Source of the DNA: an uncultured Clostridium sp.
Lineage (GTDB): Bacteria; Bacillota; Clostridia; TANB77; CAG-508
Reading direction: 5' to 3'
NCBI GenBank assembly: GCA_902462295.1
Contig: CABQAZ010000006.1
Coordinates: 2,089 to 66,088, forward strand
DNA: 64,000 nucleotides
A program made the position numbers and the translations under genes. A model generated the notes under the pieces. That model made no database searches. It worked only from the letters and a program-made list of their open reading frames with translations, and was not told the origin of the DNA. The first letter of the stretch is position 1. Each line of letters starts with the position of its first letter. This document shows, in pieces, positions 10,349-60,125 of this stretch.

Positions 10349-10482
10349 AAGAACAGAAATTATATTATAGAAATATGTTAAAAAATTATTATAGTATGAA
10401 CAAAATAAATATATAAAATGAACAGGCACTTTTATTTTTCTTATACATATAATTTTAGTATGAGAAAAATGGAGGTGCTTTT

Positions 10483-10860
10483 ATGTTTTCTGCACTTTGT
10501 ATTAGTGGATTCATAAATTTTTTACAAACAGCAGTATTTACAGTTGGATATATTTCAGGAGTACAGCTTTTTCCAGAACCATTGAGTGCTGAAGAAGAAC
10601 GTATATATCTTGAAAAATTAAGCACAGGTGATGAAGAAGCTCGAAATATACTTATAGAAAAAAATTTAAGATTAGTTGCTCATGTTTGTAAAAAATACAG
10701 TAATTCAAATGTAGACCAAGATGATTTAATATCTATTGGTACGATTGGACTTATTAAAGGCATTAATAGTTTTAGACCAGAAAAGGGTGCAAGACTTTCT
10801 ACATATGTTTCCAGATGTATTGATAATTTAATATTAACGTTACGGAAATATAAAAAATAA
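10483..10860 (+). CDS. sigK: Pro-sigma-K, 5' segment (spoIVCB-like); authentic coding ends at about 10827
   Basis: Pro-sequence plus regions 1.2 and 2 (FPEPLSAEEERIYL, EARNILIEKNLRLVAHVCKKY, DLISIGTIGLIKGINSF, STYVSRCIDN), then 11 unrelated codons and a stop. Confidence 0.9.
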   Translation: MFSALCISGFINFLQTAVFTVGYISGVQLFPEPLSAEEERIYLEKLSTGDEEARNILIEKNLRLVAHVCKKYSNSNVDQDDLISIGTIGLIKGINSFRPEKGARLSTYVSRCIDNLILTLRKYKK

Positions 10861-10862
10861 AC

Positions 10863-10891
10863 TTGACAAATACCCCCTGGGGGTGTAGAAT
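10863..10891 (+). promoter_or_regulatory. Promoter with CsoR-type operator
   Basis: TTGACA, 17 bp, TAGAAT. The spacer holds the GC-rich dyad ATACCCCCTGGGGGTGT typical of CsoR boxes. Confidence 0.7.
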
Positions 10892-10912
10892 AATAAATGT
10901 GGAGGTGAAAGA

Positions 10913-11215
10913 ATGGAATGTGAAAAGTGCAAAGGATGTAAGAAAACAACACATCGTTCAGAAGAAGAGAAGAAAAAAATAATAAAAAGATTAAACATTA
11001 TAGAGGGACAAGTAAGAGGAATAAAGCAAATGATAGAAGATGACAGATATTGTAGTGATGTATTAACACAAATGTCTGCAATAAATAAAGCACTAGAAAG
11101 TGTAGAAAATTCTATTTTAGAAAGTCACATTTCAAGTTGTGTTGTTCGAGAAATAAAAGACGGAAATACGGAAATAATACAAGAAGTAATGGAGTTAATT
11201 AGGAGATTACGATAA
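10913..11215 (+). CDS. csoR: Copper-sensing repressor CsoR family
   Basis: IEGQVRGIKQMIEDDRYCSDVLTQMSAINKAL with the conserved Cys and His positions. Confidence 0.85.
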   Translation: MECEKCKGCKKTTHRSEEEKKKIIKRLNIIEGQVRGIKQMIEDDRYCSDVLTQMSAINKALESVENSILESHISSCVVREIKDGNTEIIQEVMELIRRLR

Positions 11216-12125
11216 TGAATAAAATTTATATTAAAATTGAGGGAATGGTCTGTAATCATTGCTATGAAACAGTAACACAAATAATAAAAAAAGATTTCAA
11301 AGACCAGTATTATATAATTTAGGAAGATTAGTATCATATACAATTTTAGGAGGAATAATAGGTGGAATTGGAAAAATATTTAGTGTTAACTATTATATTC
11401 AAAGTGTAATAATATTAATTTCAGCAATCTTAATGATATGTATGAGTTTATCTATGTTAGGAATTATTACAATTAATAGCAAGATAAAAAGTTGCAAGAT
11501 GTTTAGAAGAGTAAAAATTAAAAATTCATTTATTATAGGAATATTAAATGGACTTATGCCATGTGGACCATTACAAGCAATGCAAATATATGCATTAAGT
11601 ACTGCTTCAATTTTTTATGGTGCAGTATCAATGTTTTTGTTTTGTCTTGGCACAATTCCACTAATGTTGTTTTTTGGAAGCTTTGTTAATTTTACAAAAG
11701 GAAAAACAAGAGTTGTTATAAACAAAATTGCATCAATTTTAATACTTATTCTTTCTATAGCAATGTTAAACAGAGCTCTGATTGGATTTGGAATAAATGT
11801 GGGAAGTATGTTAGCAGATAAATCAGAAACAAAATATATAAAAGCAGAAATAATAGATGATTATCAATATGTTGAGTTTGATTTAAATTATGATAGTTTT
11901 CAAGATATAATAGTAAAAAAAGGAATTCCTGTTAAAATGATAGTAAATGTTGATAAAAAATATTTAACAGGATGTAATAACGAAATCGTTATAAAAGAAT
12001 TTGGAATTGACCAAAAACTTCAAGTTGGTAAAAATGAAATAGAATTTCTTCCAACAAAAGATGGTGAATTTTTATATAGTTGTTGGATGAATATGATTTC
12101 TAATAATATTAAAGTAATAAATTAA
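11215..12125 (+). pseudogene. HMA-domain / TauE-SafE(DsbD_2)-like membrane protein with cupredoxin-like tail, internally deleted
   Basis: MNKIYIKIEGMVCNHCYETV (HMA start) hits a stop after 35 codons. The membrane part resumes in another frame (RLVSYTILGGIIGGIG...). Confidence 0.65.
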
Positions 12126-12140
12126 AAAAGGAGAATAGTT

Positions 12141-12347
12141 ATGAAAGAAATTAAATTAAAAATAGAGGGAATGCATTGTACAGGATGTTCAAATAGATTA
12201 GAAAAGGTACTAAATAATACTGATGGTATAGAAAAAGCTACAGTTAGTTTTGAAGAAAAACAAGCAGTAATAGAATATGATGAAAGTCAAATAGATATTG
12301 CTAAAATAAAAGAAACTATAAGTGATGCGGGTTTTAAAGGAGAATAA
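12141..12347 (+). CDS. copZ: Copper chaperone CopZ
   Basis: 68 aa HMA domain with GMHCTGCS. Confidence 0.9.
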   Translation: MKEIKLKIEGMHCTGCSNRLEKVLNNTDGIEKATVSFEEKQAVIEYDESQIDIAKIKETISDAGFKGE

Positions 12348-12349
12348 GT

Positions 12350-14545
12350 ATGAAAAAAGTATTATTGAAAATTGATGGAATGACATGTAGTGCATGTTCA
12401 TCAGGGCTAGAAAAGTTTTTAAATAAGCAAGATGGAATAGAAAATGCATCAGTCAATTTAATTATGAATAATGCAAGTATCGAATATGATGATTCAAAAT
12501 TAACTTTAGAACAAGTAGAAAAATTTATAGATAAAGCAGGATTTACAAGTTTAGGAATAGATAATTTAGAAAAAGAAGAAAAGAAAAAATCAAATGAAAA
12601 ATACAGATTAATAGGAATTTCAGTTATCTCAATATTGATATTATATATATCAATGTCACATATGGTTGGATTACCAGTGATTCCATTTTTAAATATGATG
12701 ACACATCCTATAAAATATGCAGTTTCATTATTAATATTAACAATGATAGTATTGTGGATGGGAAGAGACATTTTAAAAAATGGATATAAAAATCTTATTC
12801 ATAAAACGCCAAATATGGACACATTAGTAATGATAGGTGTTATGGCAAGTTATATATATAGTGTATATGGAACAATAAGAATTTGTAATGGAAATGCAAT
12901 GTATGTAGAAAATTTGTATTATGAATCATCAGCAATAGTAATATTTTTTATAAAAATAGGTAAATATGTAGAAAGCAAAAATAAAGACAAAACAAAAGAA
13001 GCTTTACAACAGCTAATGAGTATAACGCCAAATCATGCAATTATAATAAGAGATGGAAAAGAAGAAACAGTAACACTTGATGAAATTCAAAAAGGAGATA
13101 CTGTTATTTGTAAACCAGGAGAAAAAATTGCAGTAGATGGAGAAGTTGTAGAGGGGACAACTCATATTAATGAATCATTTATAACAGGAGAAAGTGTTCC
13201 AGTAAAAAGAGAGAAAGGCTCAAAAGTAATTGCAGGAAGTATAAATTATGAGGGAACTATAAAATACAAAGCAGAAAAAATAGGTAAAGAATCAACAGTA
13301 TCAGAAATTGTTAGACTTGTTGTAGAAGCAACAAATACAAAAGCACCTATAGCAAAGGTTGCAGATACAATAAGTGGATATTTTGTACCAACAATTATAG
13401 TAATAGCAATAATAGCATTTTTAGTATGGTTTTTAATAACTAAAAATATAGCAATAGCAATAAATATATTTGTAACAATACTAGTAGTAGCATGTCCTTG
13501 CAGTTTAGGATTAGCTACACCACTTGCAATAGTAATAGCTTCAGGAAATGCAAGTAAGAAAGGAATATTAGTAAAAACTAGTGAAGCATTAGAAAATGTA
13601 CATAAAGTAAAAACAATTTGTTTTGATAAAACAGGGACTTTAACAAAAGGTGAACTAACAATTTCTAAAATATATAATTATAGTAGTTTAAATGAAAATG
13701 AAATTATAAAATTAGTTGCAAGTATAGAAAATAAGTCAGAACATCCAATAGCAAGAGCAATTATAAATGAAGCAAAGAATAGAAAAATAGAATTAGAAGA
13801 AATATTAGAATTTAAGGCAATTCCAGGATATGGAGTGAGTGCAACTATAAACGAAAAAAAATATTTAATAGGTAACAAAAAGCTAATGTTAGAAAACAAT
13901 ATTACAATGTTACAAGAGCAAAATGAATTAGAATTAGTTTCTGATGGAAATAGTATCTTGTTTATTGCAGAAAATCAGAATTTAATTGCATTAATAGGAG
14001 TAAAAGATGTATTAAAAAAAGAAAGTAAAGATATAGTTAAAAAGTTACAAGAAAGAAATATTGAAGTTGTAATGTTAACAGGTGATAATGAAAAAACTGC
14101 AAATGCGATTGCAGAGCAAATTGGAGTAAATAAAGTAATTGCAAATGTATTACCAAAACAAAAGGCAGAAGAAATAAAAAAATTAAAAGAAAAAGGCCTT
14201 GTTATGATGTGTGGAGATGGAATAAATGATAGTGTAAGTCTTGTTACTGCTGATATTGGAGTATCAGTTTCTAGTGGTACAGATATTGCAATGGATAGTA
14301 GTAATGTTGTATTGATGAATGATAATTTAGAAAAAATAGAAGATTTACTATCTATAAGTCAAAAGACAATTAGAAATATTAAACAAAATTTATTTTGGGC
14401 ATTTTTCTACAATATTTGCATGATACCAATCGCTTGTGGTGTTTTAGAGCCACTAGGTGTTGTTATGAATCCAATGATTGCTGCTTTTGCTATGACAATT
14501 AGTAGTTTAACTGTTATTCTTAATGCTCTTAGATTGAAACGATAG
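12350..14545 (+). CDS. copA: Copper-translocating P1B-type ATPase
   Basis: GMTCSACS, TGESVPV, CPC (ACPCSLGLATP), DKTGTLT and GDGINDS motifs. Confidence 0.95.
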   Translation: MKKVLLKIDGMTCSACSSGLEKFLNKQDGIENASVNLIMNNASIEYDDSKLTLEQVEKFIDKAGFTSLGIDNLEKEEKKKSNEKYRLIGISVISILILYISMSHMVGLPVIPFLNMMTHPIKYAVSLLILTMIVLWMGRDILKNGYKNLIHKTPNMDTLVMIGVMASYIYSVYGTIRICNGNAMYVENLYYESSAIVIFFIKIGKYVESKNKDKTKEALQQLMSITPNHAIIIRDGKEETVTLDEIQKGDTVICKPGEKIAVDGEVVEGTTHINESFITGESVPVKREKGSKVIAGSINYEGTIKYKAEKIGKESTVSEIVRLVVEATNTKAPIAKVADTISGYFVPTIIVIAIIAFLVWFLITKNIAIAINIFVTILVVACPCSLGLATPLAIVIASGNASKKGILVKTSEALENVHKVKTICFDKTGTLTKGELTISKIYNYSSLNENEIIKLVASIENKSEHPIARAIINEAKNRKIELEEILEFKAIPGYGVSATINEKKYLIGNKKLMLENNITMLQEQNELELVSDGNSILFIAENQNLIALIGVKDVLKKESKDIVKKLQERNIEVVMLTGDNEKTANAIAEQIGVNKVIANVLPKQKAEEIKKLKEKGLVMMCGDGINDSVSLVTADIGVSVSSGTDIAMDSSNVVLMNDNLEKIEDLLSISQKTIRNIKQNLFWAFFYNICMIPIACGVLEPLGVVMNPMIAAFAMTISSLTVILNALRLKR

Positions 14546-14559
14546 GAGGAAATTAATTG

Positions 14560-15102
14560 ATGAAAAATAAAAATATAATAATGATAATTGCAAGTATATT
14601 AATAATAATTGCTATTATAGCGATTATAGTTAGTGGAAAAAACAAAAAAGCAACTTCTACTAACCAAACAAATTCTAATACTAATAAAAGTACAACTGAA
14701 CAGGTTAAAAAAACAAGTGAAACGGTAAAATTAACTGCTGATGATAATGGTGATGTAGTAGTAGATACAACTAATATAGGAAATACGGCTACATTTTATA
14801 ATTATGATTATAATGGAACAACAATAAAATTATTTGCGGTAAAAGCATCTGACGGAACAATAAGGATGGCATTTAATACATGTCAAGTATGCAATCCATC
14901 TCCAATGGCATATTTTAAACAAAGTGGGAAAAATTTTATATGCCAAAACTGTAAAAATTCTTTTGCAACAGATAGTATAGGAAAAGAGAGAGGAGGATGT
15001 AATCCAATTCCTATTACAACAGATGAAAGAATTGATGAAGAAAATACAATAACAATAAAAAAAGATTTTATAGAAAGTCATGCTGAGAATTTCGAGAGTT
15101 AA
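14560..15102 (+). CDS. Membrane-anchored Cys-rich protein (possibly DUF2318-like metal-binding)
   Basis: N-terminal TM plus NTCQVCNPSP...ICQNCKNSF...GGCNP. Family assignment is tentative. Confidence 0.5.
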   Translation: MKNKNIIMIIASILIIIAIIAIIVSGKNKKATSTNQTNSNTNKSTTEQVKKTSETVKLTADDNGDVVVDTTNIGNTATFYNYDYNGTTIKLFAVKASDGTIRMAFNTCQVCNPSPMAYFKQSGKNFICQNCKNSFATDSIGKERGGCNPIPITTDERIDEENTITIKKDFIESHAENFES

Positions 15103-15117
15103 AAGGTGGAATAAAAA

Positions 15118-15471
15118 ATGAATGAAAAATATATTTATTTAGACTATGCTTCAAATACACCAGTAGATAAAGAGGTTTTAGACACATTTAATGAAACAAC
15201 ATTTAGATTGTACTCAGGCTGTTGGTAAAGTGTATTAGGGACAAAGGCAACAGAATTTAAAAATAAGCTAGAAGAATATGGAATATGTGTATCTATAAAA
15301 TCTGCATGTACAGTAACAATAACACCATCAAGAATTGTATTATCAATGACACATGATAGAAAAAGGTCATTAGCATCATGGAGAATAAGCTTGAGTCATT
15401 TGGTGACAGAAGAAGAGATAAATGAATTTTTAGAGATATTTGATAAACTAGTTAGGGAGGAACAAAACTAA
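15118..15471 (+). pseudogene. Cysteine desulfurase (NifS/IscS-type) remnant with large internal deletion
   Basis: N-terminus MNEKYIYLDYASNTPVDKEVLDTFNE is joined out of frame to a C-terminal tail (EYGICVSIKSACT...ISLSHLVTEEEINEF). Confidence 0.7.
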
Positions 15472-15473
15472 AA

Positions 15474-15615
15474 TATGAAATTCAAGAAATTCTAATGCAT
15501 TTTATGGGTCCTTTCCACTATCGTGAACTCTTACCATAAAATTACATAGAATTTCTAAAATTTCTCCATGCACATTCATTATTTCATTCAAAACTTATAT
15601 TTAAAGACTTCTTGA
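15474..15615 (-). repeat. MITE-like repeat, truncated copy (left arm of a 142-bp inverted pair)
   Basis: 138 of 142 nt match the reverse complement of 18529-18670. Confidence 0.9.
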
Positions 15616-15748
15616 TGTTAATATATTAAAATCTTAATCATGTACCATTTTTATACAAAATTTGCATTTTACATAAAAAAGTGATACAATATATAACATA
15701 GAAAATTTTTTGAAACCAAAAGTATTAAGAATGACAGGAGGTAGAAAG

Positions 15749-16654
15749 ATGGATTACTATACAAGAGATGAATATTGGAAAAACAGAATAATACGGGAAT
15801 CAGATTATAAACTATATTTTTTTGATTTAAGAGGTATTTATACTTGTGCAACAGTATATGAAGTAAAAGACATGAGATTGGAAGGATTAAGTTTTTTTGG
15901 AGAACATTATTATGGTATTAACATAAGAATATATCCTCAATATGTGCAGGGGGCTATACTTGCTTTAGAAGTTGGAGATGATGTAAAAAAGTTTATAGAA
16001 TATATTGAAATGATAAAACTTTTTTATAAGGAGAATCCTATAGGAATATTTAATACCATTTATCTGATAAAAGACCAAAAATATTATTTTTTTAATAGTA
16101 ATGGTATATATTCTTGTTTGGATGAAAAGAATGTGTTAAAATCTGGAATAAGAGTAAAAGTATATACACAACATTATGATTATAAGTGTAGGGCTTTAAG
16201 TCTTAATGTGTTTGGAAAATTTTCAGGAAAAGAGTATGAACTAGATTTATTGAGAAAAGCTTTTGACAAATTGAAAATTGGTGATAAACTAGAAAAAGTA
16301 GATGAGTACTATAATGAAGCACTTAAAGAAAAGTCAAAGTTTCTTATTTCTGTAGAAAGATTTGTTACACGAATTGAAAGTCCAGATTTTGTACGTCTTC
16401 CAGAAAATTCTAAAGAAACAACATTTGATTATATTCATGTTGATGTTAATATTGTAACACAGTGGGACTCTGATAAGATAGAATTTATCAAGAGAAATTT
16501 ACAAGGAATCACTAAAATGGTTTTTAAAAGCATTGAAAACAATAGAAGATTTAAGAAATATGGAGTACCAATCAATTTCTTAAGCTTGTCTAAAGTTACA
16601 GTAAGGAGTGACTTAAATAGTTTACATTACGTATTTGAATTAAAAGAAAAGTAA
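15749..16654 (+). CDS. Hypothetical protein with internal YFF(D/N)xxGIY(T/S)C duplication
   Basis: ORF with AGGAGG RBS before ATG 15749 (track start 15710). No family recognised. Confidence 0.6.
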   Translation: MDYYTRDEYWKNRIIRESDYKLYFFDLRGIYTCATVYEVKDMRLEGLSFFGEHYYGINIRIYPQYVQGAILALEVGDDVKKFIEYIEMIKLFYKENPIGIFNTIYLIKDQKYYFFNSNGIYSCLDEKNVLKSGIRVKVYTQHYDYKCRALSLNVFGKFSGKEYELDLLRKAFDKLKIGDKLEKVDEYYNEALKEKSKFLISVERFVTRIESPDFVRLPENSKETTFDYIHVDVNIVTQWDSDKIEFIKRNLQGITKMVFKSIENNRRFKKYGVPINFLSLSKVTVRSDLNSLHYVFELKEK

Positions 16655-16657
16655 TCC

Positions 16658-16696
16658 AATGAATGGAGTCTAAAATAGGCTCCATTCATTTTTTCT
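16658..16696 (+). terminator. Rho-independent terminator
   Basis: AATGAATGGAG, 11-nt loop, CTCCATTCATT, then TTTTT. Confidence 0.85.
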
Positions 16697-16730
16697 GTTT
16701 CACAATATCTTAAAATTATAATAAAAACTA

Positions 16731-16788
16731 TTGACAAAAAATATACCTTGTAATACAATGTAAACAACAGCATAGTATTACAAGGTAT
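16731..16788 (+). promoter_or_regulatory. Promoter plus 14-bp perfect inverted repeat (likely PadR operator)
   Basis: TTGACA, 17 bp, TACAAT. ATACCTTGTAATAC (16743-16756) pairs with GTATTACAAGGTAT (16775-16788). Confidence 0.65.
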
Positions 16789-16804
16789 AAAAGGGAGGTA
16801 AGTT

Positions 16805-17143
16805 ATGAAAATTAACAAAGAATTACTAAAAGGTAGTACTGAATTAATAGTATTAAGTGTGTTAGAAAATGAAAACATGTATGGATATCAGATGATAAAA
16901 AAATTAAAAGAAAAATCTGAAGATATATTTGAATTTCAAGAAGGAACATTATACCCAATATTACATAAATTGGAAGAAAAAGGATGGATTATATCTTATT
17001 GGGATGAAATAGGAGGAAAAAAGAGAAAATATTATTCAATAACTAAAGATGGAAAAAAGAAATTGAAAGATAAAAAGGAAGAATGGCAAATATTTAGTTC
17101 GAGCATGAATAAAATAATTGGAGGTGTTTTATTTGAAAGCTAA
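16805..17143 (+). CDS. PadR family transcriptional regulator
   Basis: LKGSTELIVLSVLENENMYGYQMIKKL...GTLYPILHKLEEKGWI...RKYYSITKDGKK. Confidence 0.9.
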   Translation: MKINKELLKGSTELIVLSVLENENMYGYQMIKKLKEKSEDIFEFQEGTLYPILHKLEEKGWIISYWDEIGGKKRKYYSITKDGKKKLKDKKEEWQIFSSSMNKIIGGVLFES

Positions 17144-18509
17144 AGATTTTTTAGAAAATGTATGTAGTAATATAAAATATAAACCTGCAAGCAAACAAAT
17201 TTCAGAAGAACTAAGAACACATATAGAAGAAGCACAGGTGGAAATTATCGGTAAAGGATATTCTGAAGAAGAAGCAGAAGAGATTGCAGTTAAAAAGATG
17301 GGAAATGCAAAAGAAATAGGGAAAAAATTAAATAAGATTCATAGACCAAAGTTGGATTTAGGGATTTTAATTACTGCTATTGTTTTTAGCATATTAGATG
17401 GATGGCCAAGTATATTTTTGGGAATTGATATGTTATGGAATAAACTATATTTAGGAATCAATAATTTTATGACTGCTAAAATGATATATATAATATCTAT
17501 TTCTACAATGATATTGGCAATATGTTTATATTTTTTTGATTATAGAAAAATTTATAAGTATTCAAAAATAATATATATGTTAGCAACTATACTTAATATA
17601 GTCAGCTGTATTAGAGGTGAGAGGTATAATGGAAATATAATATGGGGATTAGAGCCTTTTACCAATGTATCAGCAACAGTTTTTTCAGTGCCACTTTATG
17701 TTATTGCTTTTTCAGGATTAGTACAAGATTATATACAAGACAAAAAGGATAATTATTTTAAATTGATTTTATTAAGTATTTTGTCAGTGATACTATCTCT
17801 AATAATAAATTTTGTTTCAGGTTTTGTACTAGCAATAGTATATATGATGATAAGTATAGTATTATTAGCAAAAAAATCTAAATACAAAAGAATTATTAGT
17901 GTGTATAGTTGTTCTATAATTGGTGTATTTTTATTAACAACAATTATATGTGTTATTCCTACCAAAATAATAAATAAACAGGAAAAATTAGAATCATCAT
18001 ATTGGTTAGGAATAGATACAATGCAAAAAGAAAAAATAGAGATAACAAGACAAGAGGTTATTCAAAATTCAAAATTATTTGGTAGTGCAGAAATAGAATT
18101 CAATCCTGAAAATATTTATGCTTTTTCAAAATGCATATTTTTAAGTGTATTATCAAAATATGGATGGGTTACTAGCATAAGTTTTGCAATAATAATAATT
18201 GGATTTGAAATTAAAATATTAATAGATGCAATAAACATAAAAGATAATTATGGGAAAACTATTATGTTGGGAATATCAATATTATATTTAACTCAAACAT
18301 TAGGAAACATAGCTATGAATTTTGGGTTTGGTGTTATTGCAGAATTTAGCTTACCATTTATTAGAGGAGGAATGACAGAAAATCTTATGAATATTATTTG
18401 TTTGTCATTAATGTTGTCGATTTATAGAAGAAAAGATATAAATTTTGAAGAGCCACAAAAGTCAAAAGTATTAGCAAAAATTGAAGATTATTTCTTTGAA
18501 AAGTGTTAA
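17133..18509 (+). CDS. Polytopic membrane protein: PadR-associated N-terminal domain plus divergent FtsW/RodA (SEDS)-like C-terminus
   Basis: Multiple TM segments and a tail LPFIRGGMTENLMNIICLSLMLSIY resembling the SEDS PF(I/V)SYGGSS motif. The start is ambiguous (17118 ATG or 17133 TTG). Confidence 0.55.
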   Translation: MKAKDFLENVCSNIKYKPASKQISEELRTHIEEAQVEIIGKGYSEEEAEEIAVKKMGNAKEIGKKLNKIHRPKLDLGILITAIVFSILDGWPSIFLGIDMLWNKLYLGINNFMTAKMIYIISISTMILAICLYFFDYRKIYKYSKIIYMLATILNIVSCIRGERYNGNIIWGLEPFTNVSATVFSVPLYVIAFSGLVQDYIQDKKDNYFKLILLSILSVILSLIINFVSGFVLAIVYMMISIVLLAKKSKYKRIISVYSCSIIGVFLLTTIICVIPTKIINKQEKLESSYWLGIDTMQKEKIEITRQEVIQNSKLFGSAEIEFNPENIYAFSKCIFLSVLSKYGWVTSISFAIIIIGFEIKILIDAINIKDNYGKTIMLGISILYLTQTLGNIAMNFGFGVIAEFSLPFIRGGMTENLMNIICLSLMLSIYRRKDINFEEPQKSKVLAKIEDYFFEKC

Positions 18510-18529
18510 TATTAGATTATTATTAGTAT

Positions 18530-18716
18530 CAAGAAGCCTTAAAATATAAGTTTTGAATGAAATAACGAATGTGCATGGAGAAATTTTAGAAATTCTATGT
18601 AATTTTATGGTAAGAGTTCACGATAGTGGAAAGGACCCATAAAATGCATTAGAATTTCTTAAATTTCATAATAAACTGAGGAATGGAATGAAAAACTTAT
18701 ATTTTAAGGCTTCTTG
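18530..18716 (+). repeat. MITE-like element, full copy (187 bp) with 25-bp terminal inverted repeats
   Basis: CAAGAAGCCTTAAAATATAAGTTTT (18530-18554) pairs with AAAACTTATATTTTAAGGCTTCTTG (18692-18716). No ORF. Confidence 0.8.
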
Positions 18717-18842
18717 TAAGTATAATAAGTAAAATGTACTATTTTATTTATTTCTATCTTGCAATTTTTGGTAAAAATTTTTTTATTAATGTAATAGTAA
18801 AAAGTACAATTAGTTAAGCATACATTGTACAGAGGTGAAAAT

Positions 18843-19007
18843 ATGTTATTAAAAATTAAAGAAACCGAAAATAAAGAAGAATTTGAAAATAAAGTAGCAC
18901 ATTTAAAAGCAATACTAATTCAAGAATATATAAATCAATTAGAAGTAAATGCAAAAACAAAAAATGAAATAAAAAAAGAAGTAATAAAAAAACTGCAAAT
19001 GACTTGA
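18843..19007 (+). CDS. Small Lys/Glu-rich protein (54 aa) immediately upstream of the recombinase
   Basis: GAGGTG RBS 5 nt before ATG 18843. No family recognised. Confidence 0.45.
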   Translation: MLLKIKETENKEEFENKVAHLKAILIQEYINQLEVNAKTKNEIKKEVIKKLQMT

Positions 19008-19052
19008 AATATATATTATTAATATTATATTAAACAAAAGGAGTTTATGCAG

Positions 19053-20708
19053 ATGAAAGTGATAGCAATTTATTCAAGAAAATCAAAGTCAACAGATAGA
19101 GGAGAATCTATTATAACACAAATGAAACTTTGTGAAGAGTATATAAAGAAAAACTATTTTGACGAAGAAATTAAAATTATATATTATAATGAGGGAGAGG
19201 GGAAATCTGGAGCAGACTCTCAAAGAATAAAATTTAATAAATTAATGAGAGATGCTAAAGAGAAAAAGTATAATGTTTTAATATGTTATAGATTGGACAG
19301 AGTTGCAAGAAATGTTTCAGATTTTTCAGATTTAATAGATGAATTAACATCATATAACATTAGTTTTATTTCAGTAAAAGAACAATTTGATACAACAACG
19401 CCTATGGGTCGTGCAATGATGTATATTGCAAGTGTATTTGCACAATTAGAAAGAGAAATAGGAGCAGAAAGAATAAAAGATAATCTTACTGAACTTGCTA
19501 AATCTGGAAGATGGCTTGGAGGAACTACACCAACAGGATATAAATCTATAGGATTTGAGACAATACAAATAAAAGAAATAAATGAAAATAATGAAATTGA
19601 AAAAAAGAGAAAAAAAGCATATAAACTTGAGAAACAAAAAGAAGAAGTTGATTTAATTGAATTGTTATTTAGAAAAATTGAAGATTTAAAGTCATTAACA
19701 GCGGTAGAGACATATCTGATTAATAATAATATACTTACTAAAAACGGAAAAAGATATACTAGATTTACGCTTTCTAATATTTATAGAAATATAGTGTATG
19801 CAAAAAATGATATAGAAATGTACCAATACTTAAAAGAGAAAAACATTGAAGTTTATGCTGTAGAACAAGATTTTAATGGCAAACAGGGAATGATTGCCTA
19901 TAATAAAACAAAACAGCAAAAACATAAGTCTGTAATTAAGAATGAAATGGATGAATGGATAATATCTGTAGGTAAACATGAGGGATACATTGATGGAAAG
20001 AGATGGATTAATATTCAAAACATATTAGATAGAAATCAAAATAAAAGATATAGAAGACCTAGAAAAAATAAAGCATTACTATCAGGTATATTAAAATGTG
20101 AATGTAATGGGTATATGAGACCAAAAATTAGTTCTGGTAGGACTGACCAATATGGAAATGATAGATTTTTTTATATGTGTGAAATAAAAGAGTTAAGCAG
20201 ATTACATAAATGTGATATAAAAAATATTGATGGAAATGAATTAGATAGAGAATTGCTAATGCAAATGAAACAATGGTATGCACCAAATTTTAAAATAGTA
20301 AAAGAGTTAAAAGGAATAGTAAACAATAAATGTGAGCAAACTGAAAATGAAATAGAAATTGATAGATTGAGCAAATTATATAAAAAAAATGAAAAAAATT
20401 TAATAAATTTGATAGATAGAATAAAATATATAGATATTAGTTTAATAGATGATATAAATAAAGAAATTAAAAGTTTAAAAGAGGAAAATAAGCAAATAAA
20501 TGAAAGTATAAATGAATTAATGAAAAATTATAATAATTATAATTTGGAAATACCTGAAGATAAAATTTCAGAATTAGCTATTCAAGTAATAGAAAAATCA
20601 TTTAAAGCATTTTATGGATTGGATATTTTAGAGCAAAGAAAAATTTTAAGAATGTTCATATCAAAAGCTGTATGGAATGGAGAATATGTTCAAATAGATT
20701 TTTTTTAG
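19053..20708 (+). CDS. Large serine recombinase (SpoIVCA-like)
   Basis: VIAIYSRKSKSTDRGESIITQ (catalytic Ser region), YRLDRVARN, resolvase core, then recombinase and zinc-ribbon (CECNG...C) plus coiled-coil tail. Track start 19047. Confidence 0.9.
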   Translation: MKVIAIYSRKSKSTDRGESIITQMKLCEEYIKKNYFDEEIKIIYYNEGEGKSGADSQRIKFNKLMRDAKEKKYNVLICYRLDRVARNVSDFSDLIDELTSYNISFISVKEQFDTTTPMGRAMMYIASVFAQLEREIGAERIKDNLTELAKSGRWLGGTTPTGYKSIGFETIQIKEINENNEIEKKRKKAYKLEKQKEEVDLIELLFRKIEDLKSLTAVETYLINNNILTKNGKRYTRFTLSNIYRNIVYAKNDIEMYQYLKEKNIEVYAVEQDFNGKQGMIAYNKTKQQKHKSVIKNEMDEWIISVGKHEGYIDGKRWINIQNILDRNQNKRYRRPRKNKALLSGILKCECNGYMRPKISSGRTDQYGNDRFFYMCEIKELSRLHKCDIKNIDGNELDRELLMQMKQWYAPNFKIVKELKGIVNNKCEQTENEIEIDRLSKLYKKNEKNLINLIDRIKYIDISLIDDINKEIKSLKEENKQINESINELMKNYNNYNLEIPEDKISELAIQVIEKSFKAFYGLDILEQRKILRMFISKAVWNGEYVQIDFF

Positions 20709-20711
20709 AAA

Positions 20712-21098
20712 TTGTGTTTCCACAATGTATGTATAGACAATGAGATTTTAATGCATTTTAGATCTACAAAGAAATTGAACAACGAGGTTTATTTAAATGA
20801 GCCAATAGGAAAAGACAAAGATGATAATGTGGTTACATTACAAGAGGTACTTGAAAATGAAGAACGTAGTGTTGAGGAATCTGTTGATTTAAAAATGAAA
20901 GTGAAACTATTATATGAAAAGATGAAAAGTGTATTAAAAGATAGAGAACGTACTATTTTAGAATTGCGTTTCGGACTTGATGGACATAAACCTAAAACTC
21001 AAATTGAAATAGCAAAAGAAATGGGGATTTCCCGTTCTTATGTTTCTAGAATTGAAACAAAAGCTATAGGAAAATTAGCAAAAGAAATTAAAGAATAA
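20712..21098 (+). CDS. sigK: Sigma-K, 3' segment (spoIIIC-like); authentic coding from about 20730
   Basis: CIDNEILMHFRSTKK...LELRFGLDG...TQIEIAKEMGISRSYVSRIETKAIGKL (regions 3 and 4). Confidence 0.9.
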   Translation: MCFHNVCIDNEILMHFRSTKKLNNEVYLNEPIGKDKDDNVVTLQEVLENEERSVEESVDLKMKVKLLYEKMKSVLKDRERTILELRFGLDGHKPKTQIEIAKEMGISRSYVSRIETKAIGKLAKEIKE

Positions 21099-27280: not shown

Positions 27281-27898
27281 TTATAGAACAGCACCTAAAA
27301 CCAATATACCTAAATTATCTTCATAAATTTTTTTGAATTGTGTCATAGGTAGTGGATTAGTGCCTAAGCCAACTTCAATAGTATATCCAGGTCTGTTATA
27401 ATTTTGAATAAACCAGTCTTTATATCCGGCAAAGCTTGAATTATAAGGTGTAGGTTCAAGAGAATATCCACTTACATTAGCAAATTGTCTTCCAATAAAT
27501 AAAGAATTTGGCGGATTGTAGTTTTGAGACTGCAAATAAATCACTTCGCCTTGTGAATGATATGCTAAAATTAGTCTAAAATTGTGTTGAAGTGTAAAAT
27601 TATAAACAGCTAAAGCTTCAGGTTCAGTAAGTGGACCATATCCAACAAAGTCACGTGGTGCGGGTGTTGTGAAGCCTTGCTCATATTTTATTTCACGTGC
27701 TTTTTCCCATTCTGCAGGAAATTGAAGATTTAAGTCTACACCACGAATATTGGCTTTCCAACCATCTGGAAAAGGAATTGTTGCAAATCCATAAGCTATT
27801 TTTTCTGCCTGTTTATAAGATGGAGATGATTTTGGGAGTGCACCTGTGACTAAATCTACCCCGGTTGGATTAATTTTCATAGGAGTAAAAGCTAGCAA
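27281..27898 (-). CDS. M14 peptidase (gamma-D-glutamyl-L-diamino acid endopeptidase I type), 3' segment; authentic coding from about 27862
   Basis: NPTGVDLVTGALP...DFVGYGPLTEPEA...AYHSQGEVIY...FAGYKDWFIQ...GYTIEVG. Carboxypeptidase-A-fold C-terminal half with no N-terminal half. Confidence 0.8.
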   Translation of the reverse strand: MLAFTPMKINPTGVDLVTGALPKSSPSYKQAEKIAYGFATIPFPDGWKANIRGVDLNLQFPAEWEKAREIKYEQGFTTPAPRDFVGYGPLTEPEALAVYNFTLQHNFRLILAYHSQGEVIYLQSQNYNPPNSLFIGRQFANVSGYSLEPTPYNSSFAGYKDWFIQNYNRPGYTIEVGLGTNPLPMTQFKKIYEDNLGILVLGAVL

Positions 27899-28033
27899 TC
27901 ATCTGTGAATAAAAAATCTAAATATAAAAACACATTTGAATACAATGATATTTAATAAATTTCTGAAAAGATAAGTAAGTAATTGACTAAATCAAATAAT
28001 TATGTTACAATAAATGTATAGGAGGTACATAAA

Positions 28034-29335
28034 ATGGAACGAAAAATGTCGAAAAAATTGCTAGAATGGAAAAATGATACAGAAAAGACACCATTAATTT
28101 TATATGGAGCTAGACAAGTAGGAAAGACCTATACTATATTATCATTTGGAAAAGAGAACTATAAGAATGTAGCATATATAAATTTTGAGGATAATAGTGA
28201 GATATCAAAAATTTTTGAACAAGATTTAGAAGTAGAAAGAATTATAAAAGAATTAAGTGTAAAGTTAGGAATAACCATATTAGAAGAAGATACATTAATA
28301 TTTTTTGATGAGATACAAGCTTGTGAAAGAGCTTTAACATCATTAAAATATTTTGCAGAAAGTAAGACAAAATATCATGTTGTAGCAGCAGGTTCATTAC
28401 TAGGGATTGCAATTAATAGACAAAAATATTCTTTTCCAGTTGGAAAAGTAAAAATGCTTACATTATATCCATTAGATTTTGAAGAATTTTTGTGGGCATT
28501 AGACAAAAAAGATTTGGCAGATATGATAAGACAAGCTTTTTCTGAGGATAAAGAATTTTCATTACATAGTTTAGCAAATCAGTATTATAGATTATATTTG
28601 GCAATTGGTGGAATGCCTAGAGCAATTTTAGAATACAAAGAAAAACAAGATATGGATTTTGTAACAGCAATTTTGAAAGATATTAATAATTCATATATAG
28701 CAGATATGGCTAAATATGCAAGTTCCACAGAAACAACAAAAATTATGGCAGTATATAATATTATTTCAGCACAATTAGCTAAAGAAAATAAAAAATTTCA
28801 ATATAAATTAATAAAATCAAGTGCAAGAGCTTATGAATATGAAACAGCAATTAATTGGTTAAATGCTTCAGGAATCATAAATCAATGTACAAAAATCAAA
28901 GAAGGAAAATTGCCACTTTCAGCATTTATAGAGCCAGAAAGTTTTAAAATCTATATGAGTGATGTGGGATTATTGTGTAATAAATTTGGAATACCTACTA
29001 ATATTGTAATTGTGGAAAATGATAACATGAATGATTTTAAAGGAGCTTTGGCTGAAAATTATGTATGCAATAGTTTAGTTCAATGTGGATTAAAACCATA
29101 TTACTGGGAATCTAATGGAAAAGCAGAAGTGGATTTTGTAGTGCAAGATAAAGAGGGAAATATTATTCCGATTGAAGTTAAATCAAGTATACATACAAGG
29201 TCAAAAAGTCTAAATGTTTTTAAAAGTTTATATAAAATTCCTTATTCTATTAGGATATCAACTAAAAATTTTGGATTTGAAAATGATATAAAATGTATTC
29301 CTTTGTATAGTGTATTTTGTTTAGATAAGTTATAA
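28034..29335 (+). CDS. AAA-type ATPase with DUF4143-like C-terminal domain
   Basis: Walker A GARQVGKT, Walker B IFFDEIQ. Overall arrangement of the COG1373-type ATPases. Confidence 0.7.
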   Translation: MERKMSKKLLEWKNDTEKTPLILYGARQVGKTYTILSFGKENYKNVAYINFEDNSEISKIFEQDLEVERIIKELSVKLGITILEEDTLIFFDEIQACERALTSLKYFAESKTKYHVVAAGSLLGIAINRQKYSFPVGKVKMLTLYPLDFEEFLWALDKKDLADMIRQAFSEDKEFSLHSLANQYYRLYLAIGGMPRAILEYKEKQDMDFVTAILKDINNSYIADMAKYASSTETTKIMAVYNIISAQLAKENKKFQYKLIKSSARAYEYETAINWLNASGIINQCTKIKEGKLPLSAFIEPESFKIYMSDVGLLCNKFGIPTNIVIVENDNMNDFKGALAENYVCNSLVQCGLKPYYWESNGKAEVDFVVQDKEGNIIPIEVKSSIHTRSKSLNVFKSLYKIPYSIRISTKNFGFENDIKCIPLYSVFCLDKL

Positions 29336-29618
29336 GTGTTTTGATGAAGCGGATATAAAAAGTGTCCACTTCGGATAGGCTCAAAGTGTCCGTTTGAAAG
29401 CTTTTGTGAAGTGTTTCAAGCGGACATTTTGACTATATAAAAAATCCTTATATTTCAATGAAAATTAAGAAATAGGGTGTGTCGTGTTTAAAGGGTAAGA
29501 TACAGGGGCAAGGTTAAAGTTGGAAAATAGGATGTATCTTGTAAAAGATGGAAAGAAGTAGATGGAGGATAGAATAAAGGGCGAAATTAGAATTAGGATA
29601 AAATATAAATTTTCTTAA

Positions 29619-30669
29619 TATAGGTTTACAATAGATATGTCACACTAAAGAATAGAAAAAGGAAATACCAATATGATATAATGTTTTTACCACAAAACTA
29701 ATATCGAAAGAAGGTATTTCCTATGAATAGTATAACACAAGATATAATATTTAAGCAATCAGTTGTAGAATATTCATTAAAACATGGAGTGACAGAAGCA
29801 GCAAAAAGATATAAACAGCATAGAAAAACAATATACAGATGGAGAGAAAAGTATGACGGAAGCAGAAAATCATAAGTAAATAAATCAAGAAGACCCCATT
29901 CACATCCAAATCAACATACCCAGGAAGAAATAAAAATGATAAAGAAATATAAGGCACAAAATCCAGATGTTGGGTTAGTGGTATTGTGGGTAAAATTGAT
30001 GAAAAACGGATATACAAGGCAAATAACGAGTTTGTATAGGGTGATGCAAAGGCTAGGAATATATAAAAAGACACCAAGTAAGATGTGAAATATGTGCCAA
30101 AGAAGTGTATGTCAAAAGAATTAAAAGAGCTATAAGAAAAATATTATCAATATACAGCAATAGATGAGTATACAAGGCAAAGAGTATTATGGGCGAGCAA
30201 AGAACATAGTACATATGCATTAACACAATTTATAGAAATAATAATAAAGAAATTTAAATATAAAATAGAATGTATACAAACAGATAATGGATTTGAATTT
30301 ACAAATAGATTGAATTCAAAAAAAGCCAAAGAGAAGACGATGTTTGAAAAGAAGCTGGAAGAGCTAGGAATAGAACATAAACTAATAAAGCCAAGAACAC
30401 CAAGACACAATGGAAAAGTTGAAAGAAGTCATAGAAAAGACCAAGAAAGATTTTATTACAAGAGAATATTTGTAAGTTTTGAAGATTTTAAAGAAAAATT
30501 AAGGCATTGGTCAAGAGAGTACAATAACTTTCCAATGAAACCATTAGGATGGAAAAGTCCAAATGAGAAATATGAGGAATTTCAAGCATTGTAGAGCCAA
30601 CATATCATATTTGGTATATGAAACACTAGATTTATCAATAAAGTGTGACATATGTTTGACAAACCTACA
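29619..30669 (+). mobile_element. Decayed IS (IS481-family-like, rve-type transposase)
   Basis: About 26-bp imperfect terminal IRs (TATAGGTTTACAATAGATATGTCACAC and GTGTGACATATGTTTGACAAACCTACA), flanked by a 25-bp direct repeat. Confidence 0.7.
29724..30594 (+). pseudogene. Transposase pseudogene (premature stop, internal deletion/frameshift)
   Basis: The HTH part MNSITQDIIFKQSVVEYSLKHGVTEAAKRY...DGSRKS ends in a stop. The DDE part (DVKYVP...YQYTAIDEYTR...IQTDNGFEF...PRTPRHNGKVERSH) is in other frames. Confidence 0.75.
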
Positions 30670-30760
30670 TAGGATAAAATATAAATTTTCTTAAAAACTA
30701 GAAAAAATAAGAATAATATGGTACAATTTTATTATAAAAAGATTTTTATAGGAGGATAAA

Positions 30761-31180
30761 ATGAATTCTAAAGCATATACAGAAGTTAATTTTATCATAA
30801 ATGAAATGAGTAATGAATTGTCAAATAAAATTCCAAAAGAGATAAAAGAAATGATTAAAGAAAAAATGGATGAAACATATGAATTTTACATAGATGATGA
30901 AGAATGGGAAGAAAAGGAATTGTTAGAAGATACTGAAAAAATTTTATCAGTTTTATATACAGATTATATAGCAAATGAAGAAGAAAAAAAGGTAATTTTA
31001 AATAAAGAAAAGATTATTATGCAAAAAAAATACGAGAACACAATTCAAACAAAGAATTTATGCGATGTATTTCCAAATAAAAAATATTTTAATGAAGAAA
31101 AAGAAATAGTGAAAGTTGAATATAAGAAAACATGGTATCAAAAAATAATTGAATATATAAGGCTAAAGATTAAGATATAA
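30761..31180 (+). CDS. Hypothetical acidic protein (139 aa)
   Basis: ORF with AGGAGG RBS. No family recognised. Confidence 0.55.
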   Translation: MNSKAYTEVNFIINEMSNELSNKIPKEIKEMIKEKMDETYEFYIDDEEWEEKELLEDTEKILSVLYTDYIANEEEKKVILNKEKIIMQKKYENTIQTKNLCDVFPNKKYFNEEKEIVKVEYKKTWYQKIIEYIRLKIKI

Positions 31181-31233
31181 AACAACTAAAAGTGTAAGTG
31201 AAATTTATATAATAATTAATATTGGGAGGAAAA

Positions 31234-33966: not shown

Positions 33967-34451
33967 GCTAAAAATATCCGTTTTAAGGCTTTTTATGAAT
34001 ATTGGAAGCGGACATTTTAACTATATGGAAAATACTTATTAGTATTTTTTGAGAAGTTTGATAAAAATTAAATTTTTTTTATACACAGGGGAGGACAAAA
34101 TCGATTTTTATGAGCAAATAAGTGAAGGAGTTAAAACTCTTTCACTTATTTTAGTATTTTTCAAAAAAATAATCATAAAATTAAATAAAAAAGGAAATAA
34201 AACAAATGGCAAAACAAGAACAATTGCAATTTTTTTGCATATTCAAAGAAGAAAAAGTCGATTTTCAAACATTATTAGAAAAGGTATTTATAGAATTTAT
34301 CCAAGAAAAAGAAAATAAGAAGAAATCTTCTAAATCTTGAAATACAAGAAAGTTTCAAGAATATAGTTAAATTTTTTTTGAACTTTGTAAAATAAGAAAG
34401 AAATGATATAATATTCTTTAGCAGATGATTGCTAAAGAATAGGAGGCGAAA

Positions 34452-60048: not shown

Positions 60049-60125
60049 TTTAAAATATAAGCTTTTTATTACATTCCTCAGCTTATTACAAAATTTAAGA
60101 AATTCTAGTAACGACTCTTCAAGAT
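60049..60125 (-). repeat. Internally deleted third copy of the MITE-like element
   Basis: TTAAAATATAAGCTTTTTATTACATTCCTCAGCTTATTACAAAATTTAAGAAATTCTA resembles the reverse complement of 18650-18710. Confidence 0.6.

Follow-up and report, generated by a model that had tools for sequence, protein, structure and literature searches.

A compact skin-type element with a predicted copper-efflux operon and no phage structural genes splits sigK in an uncultured Clostridium

Introduction

In a stretch of 64,000 nucleotides (nt) from an uncultured Clostridium sp. (contig CABQAZ010000006.1; the whole stretch is called the window below), sigK, the gene for pro-sigma-K, a late sporulation sigma factor, lies in two pieces separated by a 9,914-bp segment (10828-20741). 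The question raised by this locus is whether the segment has simply destroyed the gene or is a skin-type element that can leave it again, and what the segment carries. Taken as a whole, the locus is very likely to be best explained by a compact, non-phage skin-type element that is excised in the mother cell and has copper genes as cargo. The element belongs to the skin-type class, and its CsoR-CopZ-CopA cargo is new in detail, not in principle. The new findings are that a clade of large serine recombinases (LSRs) occupies one sigK codon in 55 of 73 species, that a family of candidate recombination directionality factors (RDFs) accompanies it, and that purifying selection acts on both parts of sigK, on the LSR gene, and on the copper genes.

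Results

Deletion of the insert restores sigK exactly

Coordinates refer to the window, and the genes, promoters, and attachment (att) sites given for sigK and its insert are all on the forward strand. The sigK 5′ fragment (10483-10827) contains the pro-sequence and regions 1.2 to 2.4 in 115 codons ending ...STYVSRCIDN, whereas the 3′ fragment (20742-21098) contains regions 3 and 4, begins CIDNEILMHFRSTKK..., and is directly preceded by duplicated CIDN codons. In the integrated state, 11 codons of the element (LILTLRKYKK, then stop) extend the 5′ open reading frame (ORF), which ends at 10860. The junctions are marked by a 12-nt imperfect direct repeat, TGTATTGATAAT (10816-10827) and TGTATAGACAAT (20730-20741), which matches at 10 of 12 positions, and the spacing of the two copies is exactly 9,914 bp. 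The earlier note on this DNA had described two halves in the same orientation at this distance and a sigK of about 233 amino acids (aa) upon exact deletion. Both descriptions held: joining 10827 to 20742 gave an in-frame ORF of 702 nt, or 233 aa. With the NCBIfam models for SigK, the rejoined protein reached 305.9 bits for the equivalog TIGR02846, whose cutoff is 298.65, and 312.6 bits for NF004471, and it stayed under the cutoffs of the SigE models. A survey of relatives for an intact sigK, also proposed in that note, found more than 100 uninterrupted SigK proteins at 84 to 97% identity among the matches listed, nearly all of them exactly 233 aa long. The insert cannot be told from its flanks by composition, its G+C content being 25.7% compared to 26.6% for the host window.

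The same split was found in several relatives, which are used for comparison throughout. L001, a contig of a metagenome-assembled genome (MAG), shares the flanking genes of the window and has a recombinase that is 98% identical to the window's; L002 and L003 are two short read-assembly contigs, and L093 is a gut metagenome contig, all at about 98% identity. L004 to L008 are five contigs of a more distant relative, with an LSR identity of 82%.

Upstream of sigK, a regular-expression scan found a mother-cell-type promoter-like region (10418-10453) composed of a SpoIIID-box-like ATGAACAGGC (10418-10427) followed by AC-N16-CATATAAT (10428-10453). The pattern follows what we take to be the B. subtilis consensus and is a lead rather than a proof.

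A large serine recombinase and its att sites

The last gene of the insert (19047-20708) encodes a 553-aa protein with Resolvase (PF00239), Recombinase (PF07508), and Zn_ribbon_recom (PF13408) domains and a match to the integrase family phrog_95 (3e-87). Its catalytic domain matched the TP901-1 integrase and other resolvases in PDB, and residues Y9, R11, and S13 of the YxRxS motif were invariant in an alignment of 34 recombinase homologues. The protein thus has the full domain set and the catalytic serine of a large serine recombinase, or serine integrase. Its stop codon is 21 nt before the right repeat, in agreement with the approximately 20 bp given earlier, and its gene starts 40 nt after a small ORF. 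The exact sequence of the window recombinase is not on record; the nearest one is 98% identical and comes from the same locus in a MAG.

The geometry of the att sites was read from the sequence. In attL (10806-10850), the sigK-side motif TGTTTCCA (10806-10813) and the insert-side motif CGGAAATA (10843-10850) flank TGTATTGATAAT (10816-10827), and the crossover is probably at the AA at 10825-10826. The insert-side arm of attR (20715-20741) has TGTTTCCA at 20715-20722 and TGTATAGACAAT at 20730-20741, with AA at 20739-20740. Comparison of junctions across the LSR clade showed that the core common to attL and attR is AAT(G); the 12-nt repeat is longer in the window lineage because the right end of the insert mimics sigK codons. 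The reconstructed attP reads TGTTTCCA-N16-AA-N16-CGGAAATA, a 50-bp positional dyad, and the copy of TGTTTCCA in the sigK 5′ half sits 5 bp nearer the AA than the one in attP. This offset between the attB and attP half-sites presumably fits the structural model of serine integrases. The predicted junctions are ...TTTCCAGATGTATTGATAAT joined to GAGATTTTAATGCATTTTAG for the rejoined attB and ...TTTCCACAATGTATGTATAGACAAT joined to TTAATATTAACGTTACGGAAATA for the attP of the circle. At this site, L009, which has the closest intact sigK (92% nucleotide identity), reads TGTATTGATAATGAA; this is consistent with a crossover in AAT, wobble differences between the strains preventing proof.

Thus, the locus has three features of a skin-type element: in-frame restoration of the target, an LSR at the edge, and a short core repeated at both junctions. 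Because split sigK genes are routinely miscalled as pseudogenes, an annotation rule is offered.

A recombinase clade at one codon of sigK

The alignment of 34 homologues was scanned against one genome per species, which yielded 79 loci at 39 to 71% identity from Lacrimispora, Oscillospiraceae, Ruminococcaceae, Christensenellaceae, Defluviitaleaceae, Marinisporobacter, and MAGs labeled Paenibacillaceae or Bacilli. Enough downstream DNA was available at 73 of them. At 51 of the 73, the sigK 3′ half lay within a few hundred base pairs downstream on the same strand and started with the residue seen in the window; 4 had the opposite orientation and adjoined the sigK 5′ half, 3 showed a compound or tandem arrangement inside sigK, and 15 had no sigK half nearby. 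This means that recombinases of this clade stand beside a sigK broken at the window's codon in 55 of the 73 reference species.

Some variants were apparent among these loci. The four with the opposite orientation (L040, L047, L056, and L068, from Marinisporobacter, Wukongibacter, and a Tissierellaceae MAG) have a recombinase that abuts the 5′ half as in B. subtilis. L020 and L049 carry two tandem copies of the small gene described below in one split sigK, suggesting compound elements. Elsewhere, recombinases of the clade (43 to 57% identity) lie directly upstream of N-terminally truncated genes other than sigK (L050 11880-12554, L054 6395-7102, L030 5348-5623, and L034 2165-2515), with further cases in the downstream ORFs of L051, L077, and L082 and in L014 (3550-3933). 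The truncated targets include a yabG peptidase (profile start at 63 to 67 of 280), a SleB/CwlJ-type hydrolase, an ABC permease, and a macro-domain gene, and the yabG case resembles the published yin element. The small partner gene was present in seven of these eight loci and was not detected in L082. Therefore, the unit of LSR and small protein appears to split several genes, at least two of which are sporulation genes.

Both sigK halves were within the fetched DNA in 21 relatives, whose elements could thus be fully sized at 2.66 to 10.5 kb. Their 117 cargo ORFs contained no phage structural families by PHROGs. By Pfam, the cargo comprised helix-turn-helix regulators, 10 ORFs for Cyt-b5-domain proteins, complete NiFe hydrogenase sets in six elements of the Lacrimispora group (each with the large and small subunits and the HycI protease), an alpha-galactosidase with an AraC regulator (four to five of the 21 elements), and an arginase, a decarboxylase, a spermidine synthase, an ABC transporter, and a chemotaxis receptor. 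The hydrogenase set occurs together with a Cyt-b5-domain protein in L022, L026, L028, L031, L046, and L079 (5.7 to 8.1 kb). Four of these (L022, L028, L031, and L046) also have a 430- to 517-aa ORF and a divergent 282- to 300-aa ORF, probably the alpha-galactosidase and AraC-regulator matches. Copper genes were found only in the lineage of the window (L001 and L093 at 98%, and L004 to L007 at 82% LSR identity).

A small protein that accompanies the recombinase

Directly upstream of the LSR gene and on the same strand is a 54-aa ORF (18843-19007) that the earlier note had missed. It has a GAGGTG ribosome-binding site and a -10 motif, CATACATT, at 18819-18826. An iterative profile search with this ORF against all ORFs of the fetched loci returned 60 matching ORFs, or 53 distinct proteins of 52 to 76 aa, in about 55 loci. 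This family and the LSR were the only genes present in all 21 fully sized elements. An extreme example was found in three minimal elements (2.66 to 2.85 kb), which hold little else. The placement of the small gene varies: it is directly upstream of the LSR gene on the same strand, upstream in divergent orientation, or close to the opposite end of the element, from where it would come to adjoin the LSR gene across attP after circularization.

A second trend concerns the sequence in front of it. Of 51 distinct copies, 31 have CATAnnnT, often CATACATT, at 15 to 50 nt upstream of the start codon, compared to 95 of 1,150 (8%) other genes of the fetched loci. We take CATACAnT to be the sigma-E -10 consensus. 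The 54-aa protein is therefore a likely RDF by its position and its co-occurrence with the LSR, on which its proposed role rests because it lacks a relative in Pfam or PDB, and it would be the best candidate for a sporulation-specific excision factor.

A copper operon just inside attL

The cargo begins with the best promoter match of the region, a sigma-A-type promoter (10863-10891; 11 of 12 positions) consisting of TTGACA (10863-10868), a 17-nt spacer, and TAGAAT (10886-10891). It starts 36 nt inside the left junction, and its spacer holds a GC-rich pseudo-palindrome, ATACCCCCTGGGGGTGTA (10870-10887), that resembles a CsoR box. The promoter is followed by csoR (10913-11215; PF02583, 3.8e-30, and a RicR-like NCBIfam match), encoding a Cu(I)-sensing repressor with the ligand spacing Cys-x25-His-x4-Cys; by copZ (12141-12347; PF00403, 1.4e-20), encoding a copper chaperone with an HMA domain and the MxCxxC motif; and by copA (12350-14545; TIGR01511, 1e-181, and Pfam), encoding a 731-aa P1B-type Cu(I)-exporting ATPase in whose translation the HMA, CPC, DKTGT, YN, and MxxSS motifs can be read. 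The csoR-copZ-copA module reported earlier just inside the left junction was therefore recovered in full. With the C-H-C ligands, the operator, MxCxxC, and the P1B-1 motifs, compared to consensus sequences that we take to be those of CsoR operators and copper proteins, the genes have the makeup predicted for a CsoR-regulated copZA copper-efflux operon.

Between csoR and copZ lies a disrupted accessory gene (11215-12125). It consists of a 35-aa HMA fragment (11215-11322) and an ORF (11433-12125) that has a cupredoxin-like domain and only the C-terminal half of DsbD_2, the N-terminal half being missing. The gene is a pseudogene in the window and in L001 and is cut to a 122-aa ORF in L004. No terminator-like site was detected between the sigK 5′ ORF and the csoR promoter, and so mother-cell transcripts of sigK would enter the copper operon before excision.

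The insert is not a prophage remnant by its gene content. PHROGs found no capsid, tail, terminase, portal, or lysis genes in it, and the PHROGs matches were limited to the integrase and a few families of regulators or of unknown function, as the earlier statement that phage genes are not recognizable would lead one to expect. The Pfam matches were to metal, regulator, and membrane functions. Thus, the structural, packaging, and lysis genes, or remnants of them, that define a defective prophage are missing from the insert.

Proposed excision in the mother cell and its alternatives

The following course of events would account for these observations. Vegetative cells and the forespore would keep the element in place. 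When a cell sporulates, a sigma-E-type promoter probably drives synthesis of the 54-aa partner in the mother cell, and this protein would make the LSR of the element excise instead of integrate. attL and attR would then recombine at their common AAT core (probably at the AA dinucleotide), freeing the element as a circle and rebuilding the 233-aa pro-sigma-K gene. Since only the mother-cell chromosome would be rearranged, the element would be inherited through the spore. The CsoR-repressed csoR-copZ-copA genes, with their own strong vegetative promoter just inside attL, would be the main functional cargo and probably confer copper tolerance during growth, with the remaining cargo being a mosaic in turnover (the broken HMA-DsbD_2 gene, an aminotransferase remnant, repeats resembling miniature inverted-repeat transposable elements [MITEs], and a PadR module). 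We infer the step to mother-cell-specific excision from conservation, selection, and analogy with known systems.

Several observations weigh against this reading. First, metagenome contigs were scanned with a degenerate pattern for all four att types, and although at least 106 uninterrupted sigma genes of other taxa and at least one further attR of the element were recovered, neither attP nor a same-strain attB was among the matches listed. Second, the organism is known from metagenome assemblies only and may not sporulate. Third, the small ORF of the window has a perfect -10 CATACATT but no ATA -35 motif at 15 to 18 nt and no SpoIIID-like box, and the small protein has no relative in Pfam, NCBIfam, PHROGs, PADLOC, or PDB. 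Finally, a second sigK may be present elsewhere in the genome. A second intact copy, together with no detectable excision product during sporulation, was what the earlier note would have taken as a refutation; within the 64-kb window, tblastn found the two halves and no other sigK-like gene.

The alternative that survives best, although it is unlikely, is that the element is a mobile island or satellite for which sigK is merely a conserved attB. Excision would then respond to vegetative or stress signals, to a helper phage, or to a conjugative element, and the link to sporulation would be incidental or absent. The kinship of the recombinase fits such a view: it is 36 to 42% identical to integrases of temperate Clostridium and Terrisporobacter phages and 32 to 47% identical to predicted-prophage integrases, six of which adjoin sigK fragments. 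However, this kinship together with the lack of phage genes means that the recombination module is of phage type, whereas the compact elements are not phages. A sigma-A-like TTGAAA-16-TATATT (19004-19031) precedes the LSR gene and might drive its constitutive expression. It is weak evidence because promoter-like matches in such AT-rich DNA are no commoner than in shuffled sequence. Most relatives have a sigma-E-type -10 before the partner gene, which speaks against this view. Adaptive cargo is also found on mobile islands, and the copper versions occur in two lineages with different downstream synteny. But the ORFs of at least 50 aa in 10828-20741 include no relaxase or transfer genes by Pfam and NCBIfam, and no packaging or replication genes were found by Pfam and PHROGs. 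The insert thus lacks the relaxase, coupling, and type IV secretion genes of an integrative conjugative or mobilizable element. Furthermore, the related units that split yabG and the SleB/CwlJ-type hydrolase gene point to selection for targets that the mother cell expresses. These two modes are also not exclusive, as the active phage SP-beta does both (PMC4191935).

It is less probable still that the insertion is dead, that is, that the element is fixed and immobile and sigK is a pseudogene, either in a non-sporulating lineage or in one using another sigK copy. Several decayed cargo genes inside the element, the lack of excision among the metagenome matches listed, and the uncultured state of the organism would agree with this. 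However, comparison of the window with the relative that has the 82%-identical LSR (L004) argues otherwise. At synonymous divergence (dS) values of 0.4 to 1.0, the ratios of nonsynonymous to synonymous divergence (dN/dS) were 0.05 and 0.03 for the sigK 5′ and 3′ halves (dS, 0.5 to 1.0; no frameshifts or stops), 0.14 for the recombinase, 0.26 for the 54-aa ORF, and 0.085, 0.24, and 0.07 for csoR, copZ, and copA, respectively. A gene killed by an insertion would not hold constraint such as that on the two sigK halves. The low values mean that function has been kept throughout, in the interrupted sigK as well as in the genes for recombination and for copper, the LSR and small ORF being intact as well as constrained. 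In addition, the split persists in lineages with 82% and 98% LSR identity, and its recurrence at the same codon in 55 reference species is not expected of inactivating insertions. An assembly chimera, in which the insert was wrongly joined into sigK and for which nothing speaks beyond the metagenomic origin of the related sequences, can be dismissed because assemblies made independently from different samples (L001 to L003, L093, and L004 to L008) show the two junctions again.

In contrast to these constrained genes, the accessory content from copA to the small ORF varies among lineages by deletions, remnants, and replacements: L001 and L093 lack 1,082 bp (window 15144-16225), and the middle of L004 has instead, among other genes, those for an aminotransferase, a PP-loop ATPase, and a LytTR regulator. 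Thus, the ends are conserved, attL with the copper operon beside it and attR with the genes for recombination, whereas the middle turns over.

Comparison with known sigK elements

The closest parallels are with the B. subtilis skin element, which lies between spoIVCB and spoIIIC. There, the gene for a small RDF, Skr (64 aa), is immediately upstream of spoIVCA and has a sigma-E promoter (PMC6957869), a placement like that in the window, and the element carries a repressor-controlled metal(loid) efflux system, the ars operon (PMC12607644), for arsenic instead of copper. Sigma-K has a pro-sequence in both organisms. However, the B. subtilis element is prophage derived, 42 to 48 kb long, and has more than 30 phage-like ORFs, compared to 9.9 kb and none here. 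The layout also differs. The earlier note had equated it with that of spoIVCA, which was an error: the B. subtilis recombinase adjoins the 5′ fragment in the opposite direction (PMC10745906, PMC3442830), whereas the LSR of the window is upstream of the 3′ fragment on the same strand.

C. difficile skinCd is a 14.6-kb clostridial sigK insert in which the LSR CD1231 is constitutive, the RDF CD1234 is controlled by sigma-E and SpoIIID and limits excision to the mother cell, and recombination occurs within 12-bp motifs (PMC5025042). It differs from the window element in being described as prophage-like, in its sigma-K without a pro-sequence, and in its RDF, CD1234 (about 12 to 15 kDa with tag) being larger than 54 aa. 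Two non-prophage elements with an LSR and accessory cargo, island IV in sigK of B. cereus biovar anthracis and gin in gerE, excise during sporulation (PMC10745906, PMC5595907). The gin element uses a 42-aa RDF, GirX, with GirC (PMC5595907), and its target is gerE rather than sigK; in island IV, the recombinase adjoins the 5′ fragment in the opposite orientation (PMC10745906), unlike in the window. Skr-SpoIVCA, CD1234-CD1231, and GirX-GirC are experimentally established precedents for the pairing proposed for the window, in which the 54-aa protein is compared to Skr, CD1234, and GirX by description.

The insertion sites also differ. The functional C. perfringens phage PhiS63 and the C. tetani skin element are further sigK-inserted elements; the PhiS63 core, GTAATGAAAT, is at sigK nt 427, skinCd and skinCt are at a similar location, and skinBs is in a different region (PMC3442830). 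Island IV is at nt 195 (PMC10745906). The window insertion is at neither, occupying nt 334 to 345 (codons C-I-D-N).

A survey of 15 Firmicutes genomes described skin elements of 2.6 to 48 kb and 2 to 67 proteins with highly variable cargo, a recombinase at the edge, usually immediately upstream of spoIIIC or the 3′ sigK fragment, and skin recombinases interspersed with phage integrases in the tree (bioRxiv 10.1101/2022.02.25.481979). It reported nothing but the recombinase as common to all elements, whereas the small partner gene was found in 21 of 21 fully sized elements of the window clade, and no mention of copper cargo was found in the available part of that preprint (bioRxiv 10.1101/2022.02.25.481979). 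A full-text literature search found no sigK-intervening element linked to copper genes or hydrogenase cargo and no description of the hydrogenase-bearing sigK elements of Lacrimispora. The earlier note had presented the cargo as the new aspect; this stands for the copper operon in its details, but resistance genes and non-phage cargo have precedents (PMC12607644, PMC10745906, PMC5595907).

Discussion

The locus provides a clean and compact example of a developmentally excised gene-intervening element, if excision proceeds as proposed, and it suggests that in uncultured gut Clostridia such elements can carry metal resistance stably and need not be relics of phages. Of greater use than the element itself is what the comparison yielded. 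This comprises the LSR clade, the candidate RDF family with its sigma-E-type signature, and defined attP and attB sites, which together make up a ready-made LSR/RDF pair that can be tested and a possible integrase for genome engineering.

The most interesting residue is the candidate RDF family and the minimal LSR-plus-RDF cassette that carries diverse adaptive genes in Clostridia. A broader proposal can be based on it, for and against which we see the balance as even. The 52- to 76-aa family would be the previously unrecognized cognate RDF of a large and coherent serine-integrase clade that targets mother-cell sporulation genes (the CI(D/E)N-E codon of sigK, yabG, and the SleB/CwlJ-type hydrolase gene), and the approximately 2.7-kb unit of LSR and RDF would serve gut and environmental Clostridia as a general docking platform, passed on vertically. 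Adaptive cargo of non-phage kind would dock on it and would be lost from the terminal mother cell alone. If so, copper efflux, the NiFe hydrogenase operons of Lacrimispora, the alpha-galactosidase with its AraC regulator, and polyamine genes would be examples of cargo on such a platform.

Other content of the element and possible neighboring islands

The region between copA and the small ORF begins with a gene for an FtrD-like, membrane-anchored, Cys-rich protein (14557-15102; PF10080, 5.2e-27), which in L004 has shrunk to a remnant. The 246 nt at 15228-15473 match L004 5705-5950 at 88.6% nucleotide identity and are what remains of a class-V aminotransferase gene, namely, its 3′ end; the L004 relative has the intact gene. 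Next are a 314-aa ORF (15710-16654), which has a terminator-like hairpin downstream (16658-16690), no match in Pfam, NCBIfam, PHROGs, or PADLOC, and a deleted 5′ part in L001 and L093, and the PadR module (16731-18509). The PadR-controlled membrane-protein module noted earlier was confirmed. It consists of the second strong promoter of the element, TTGACA-17-TACAAT (16731-16759); padR (16805-17143), confirmed by Pfam and NCBIfam; and the gene for a 463-aa polytopic membrane protein (17118-18509). A defense-system reading of the 314-aa and 463-aa ORFs was rejected, as there was no meaningful PADLOC match. A plasmid origin of the cargo was likewise rejected, as a whole-element megablast search against PLSDB gave only a 52-nt copA match.

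Two inverted copies of a MITE-like palindromic repeat, for which no strand is assigned, bracket the 314-aa ORF and the PadR module. Copy A (15474-15632) contains a 150-nt inverted repeat that is 96% complementary to copy B (18517-18728) and shows matches to the terminal 25-mer, and copy B has perfect 25-nt terminal inverted repeats (18530-18554 and 18692-18716). The repeat is about 190 to 210 nt long with these perfect termini (CAAGAAGCCTTAAAATATAAGTTTT) and has no Rfam match. Related copies are at 60050-60107 in the window, at 6804-7019 in L004, and at 37-209 in L009; the relatives are 87 to 92% identical and are found in other lineages, where such a copy also precedes an intact sigK. That the two copies and the PadR module between them make up a composite transposon was rejected as the primary explanation, since L001 and L093 keep the module with one copy. 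A structured RNA at 18.5 to 18.8 kb was rejected as well: the Rfam matches were subthreshold chance matches to microRNAs, and the hairpins are those of the MITE-like repeat.

Outside sigK, the window encodes a second large serine recombinase (34452-36074; 540 aa) that is approximately 22% identical to the one in sigK. Downstream of it, up to 41103, are a gene for a D-Ala-D-Ala carboxypeptidase of the VanY type and genes for a response regulator and a histidine kinase, and the whole may be another integrated element. At the matching position, L001 encodes a recombinase that is 76% identical to this one. Beside it, about 6.7 kb of the window (27743-34472) did not align to L001 and is possibly a strain-specific island; among its products are an ATPase of the AAA_14/DUF4143 type (28034-29335) and a ResIII/DEAD helicase-like protein of 914 aa (31222-33966).

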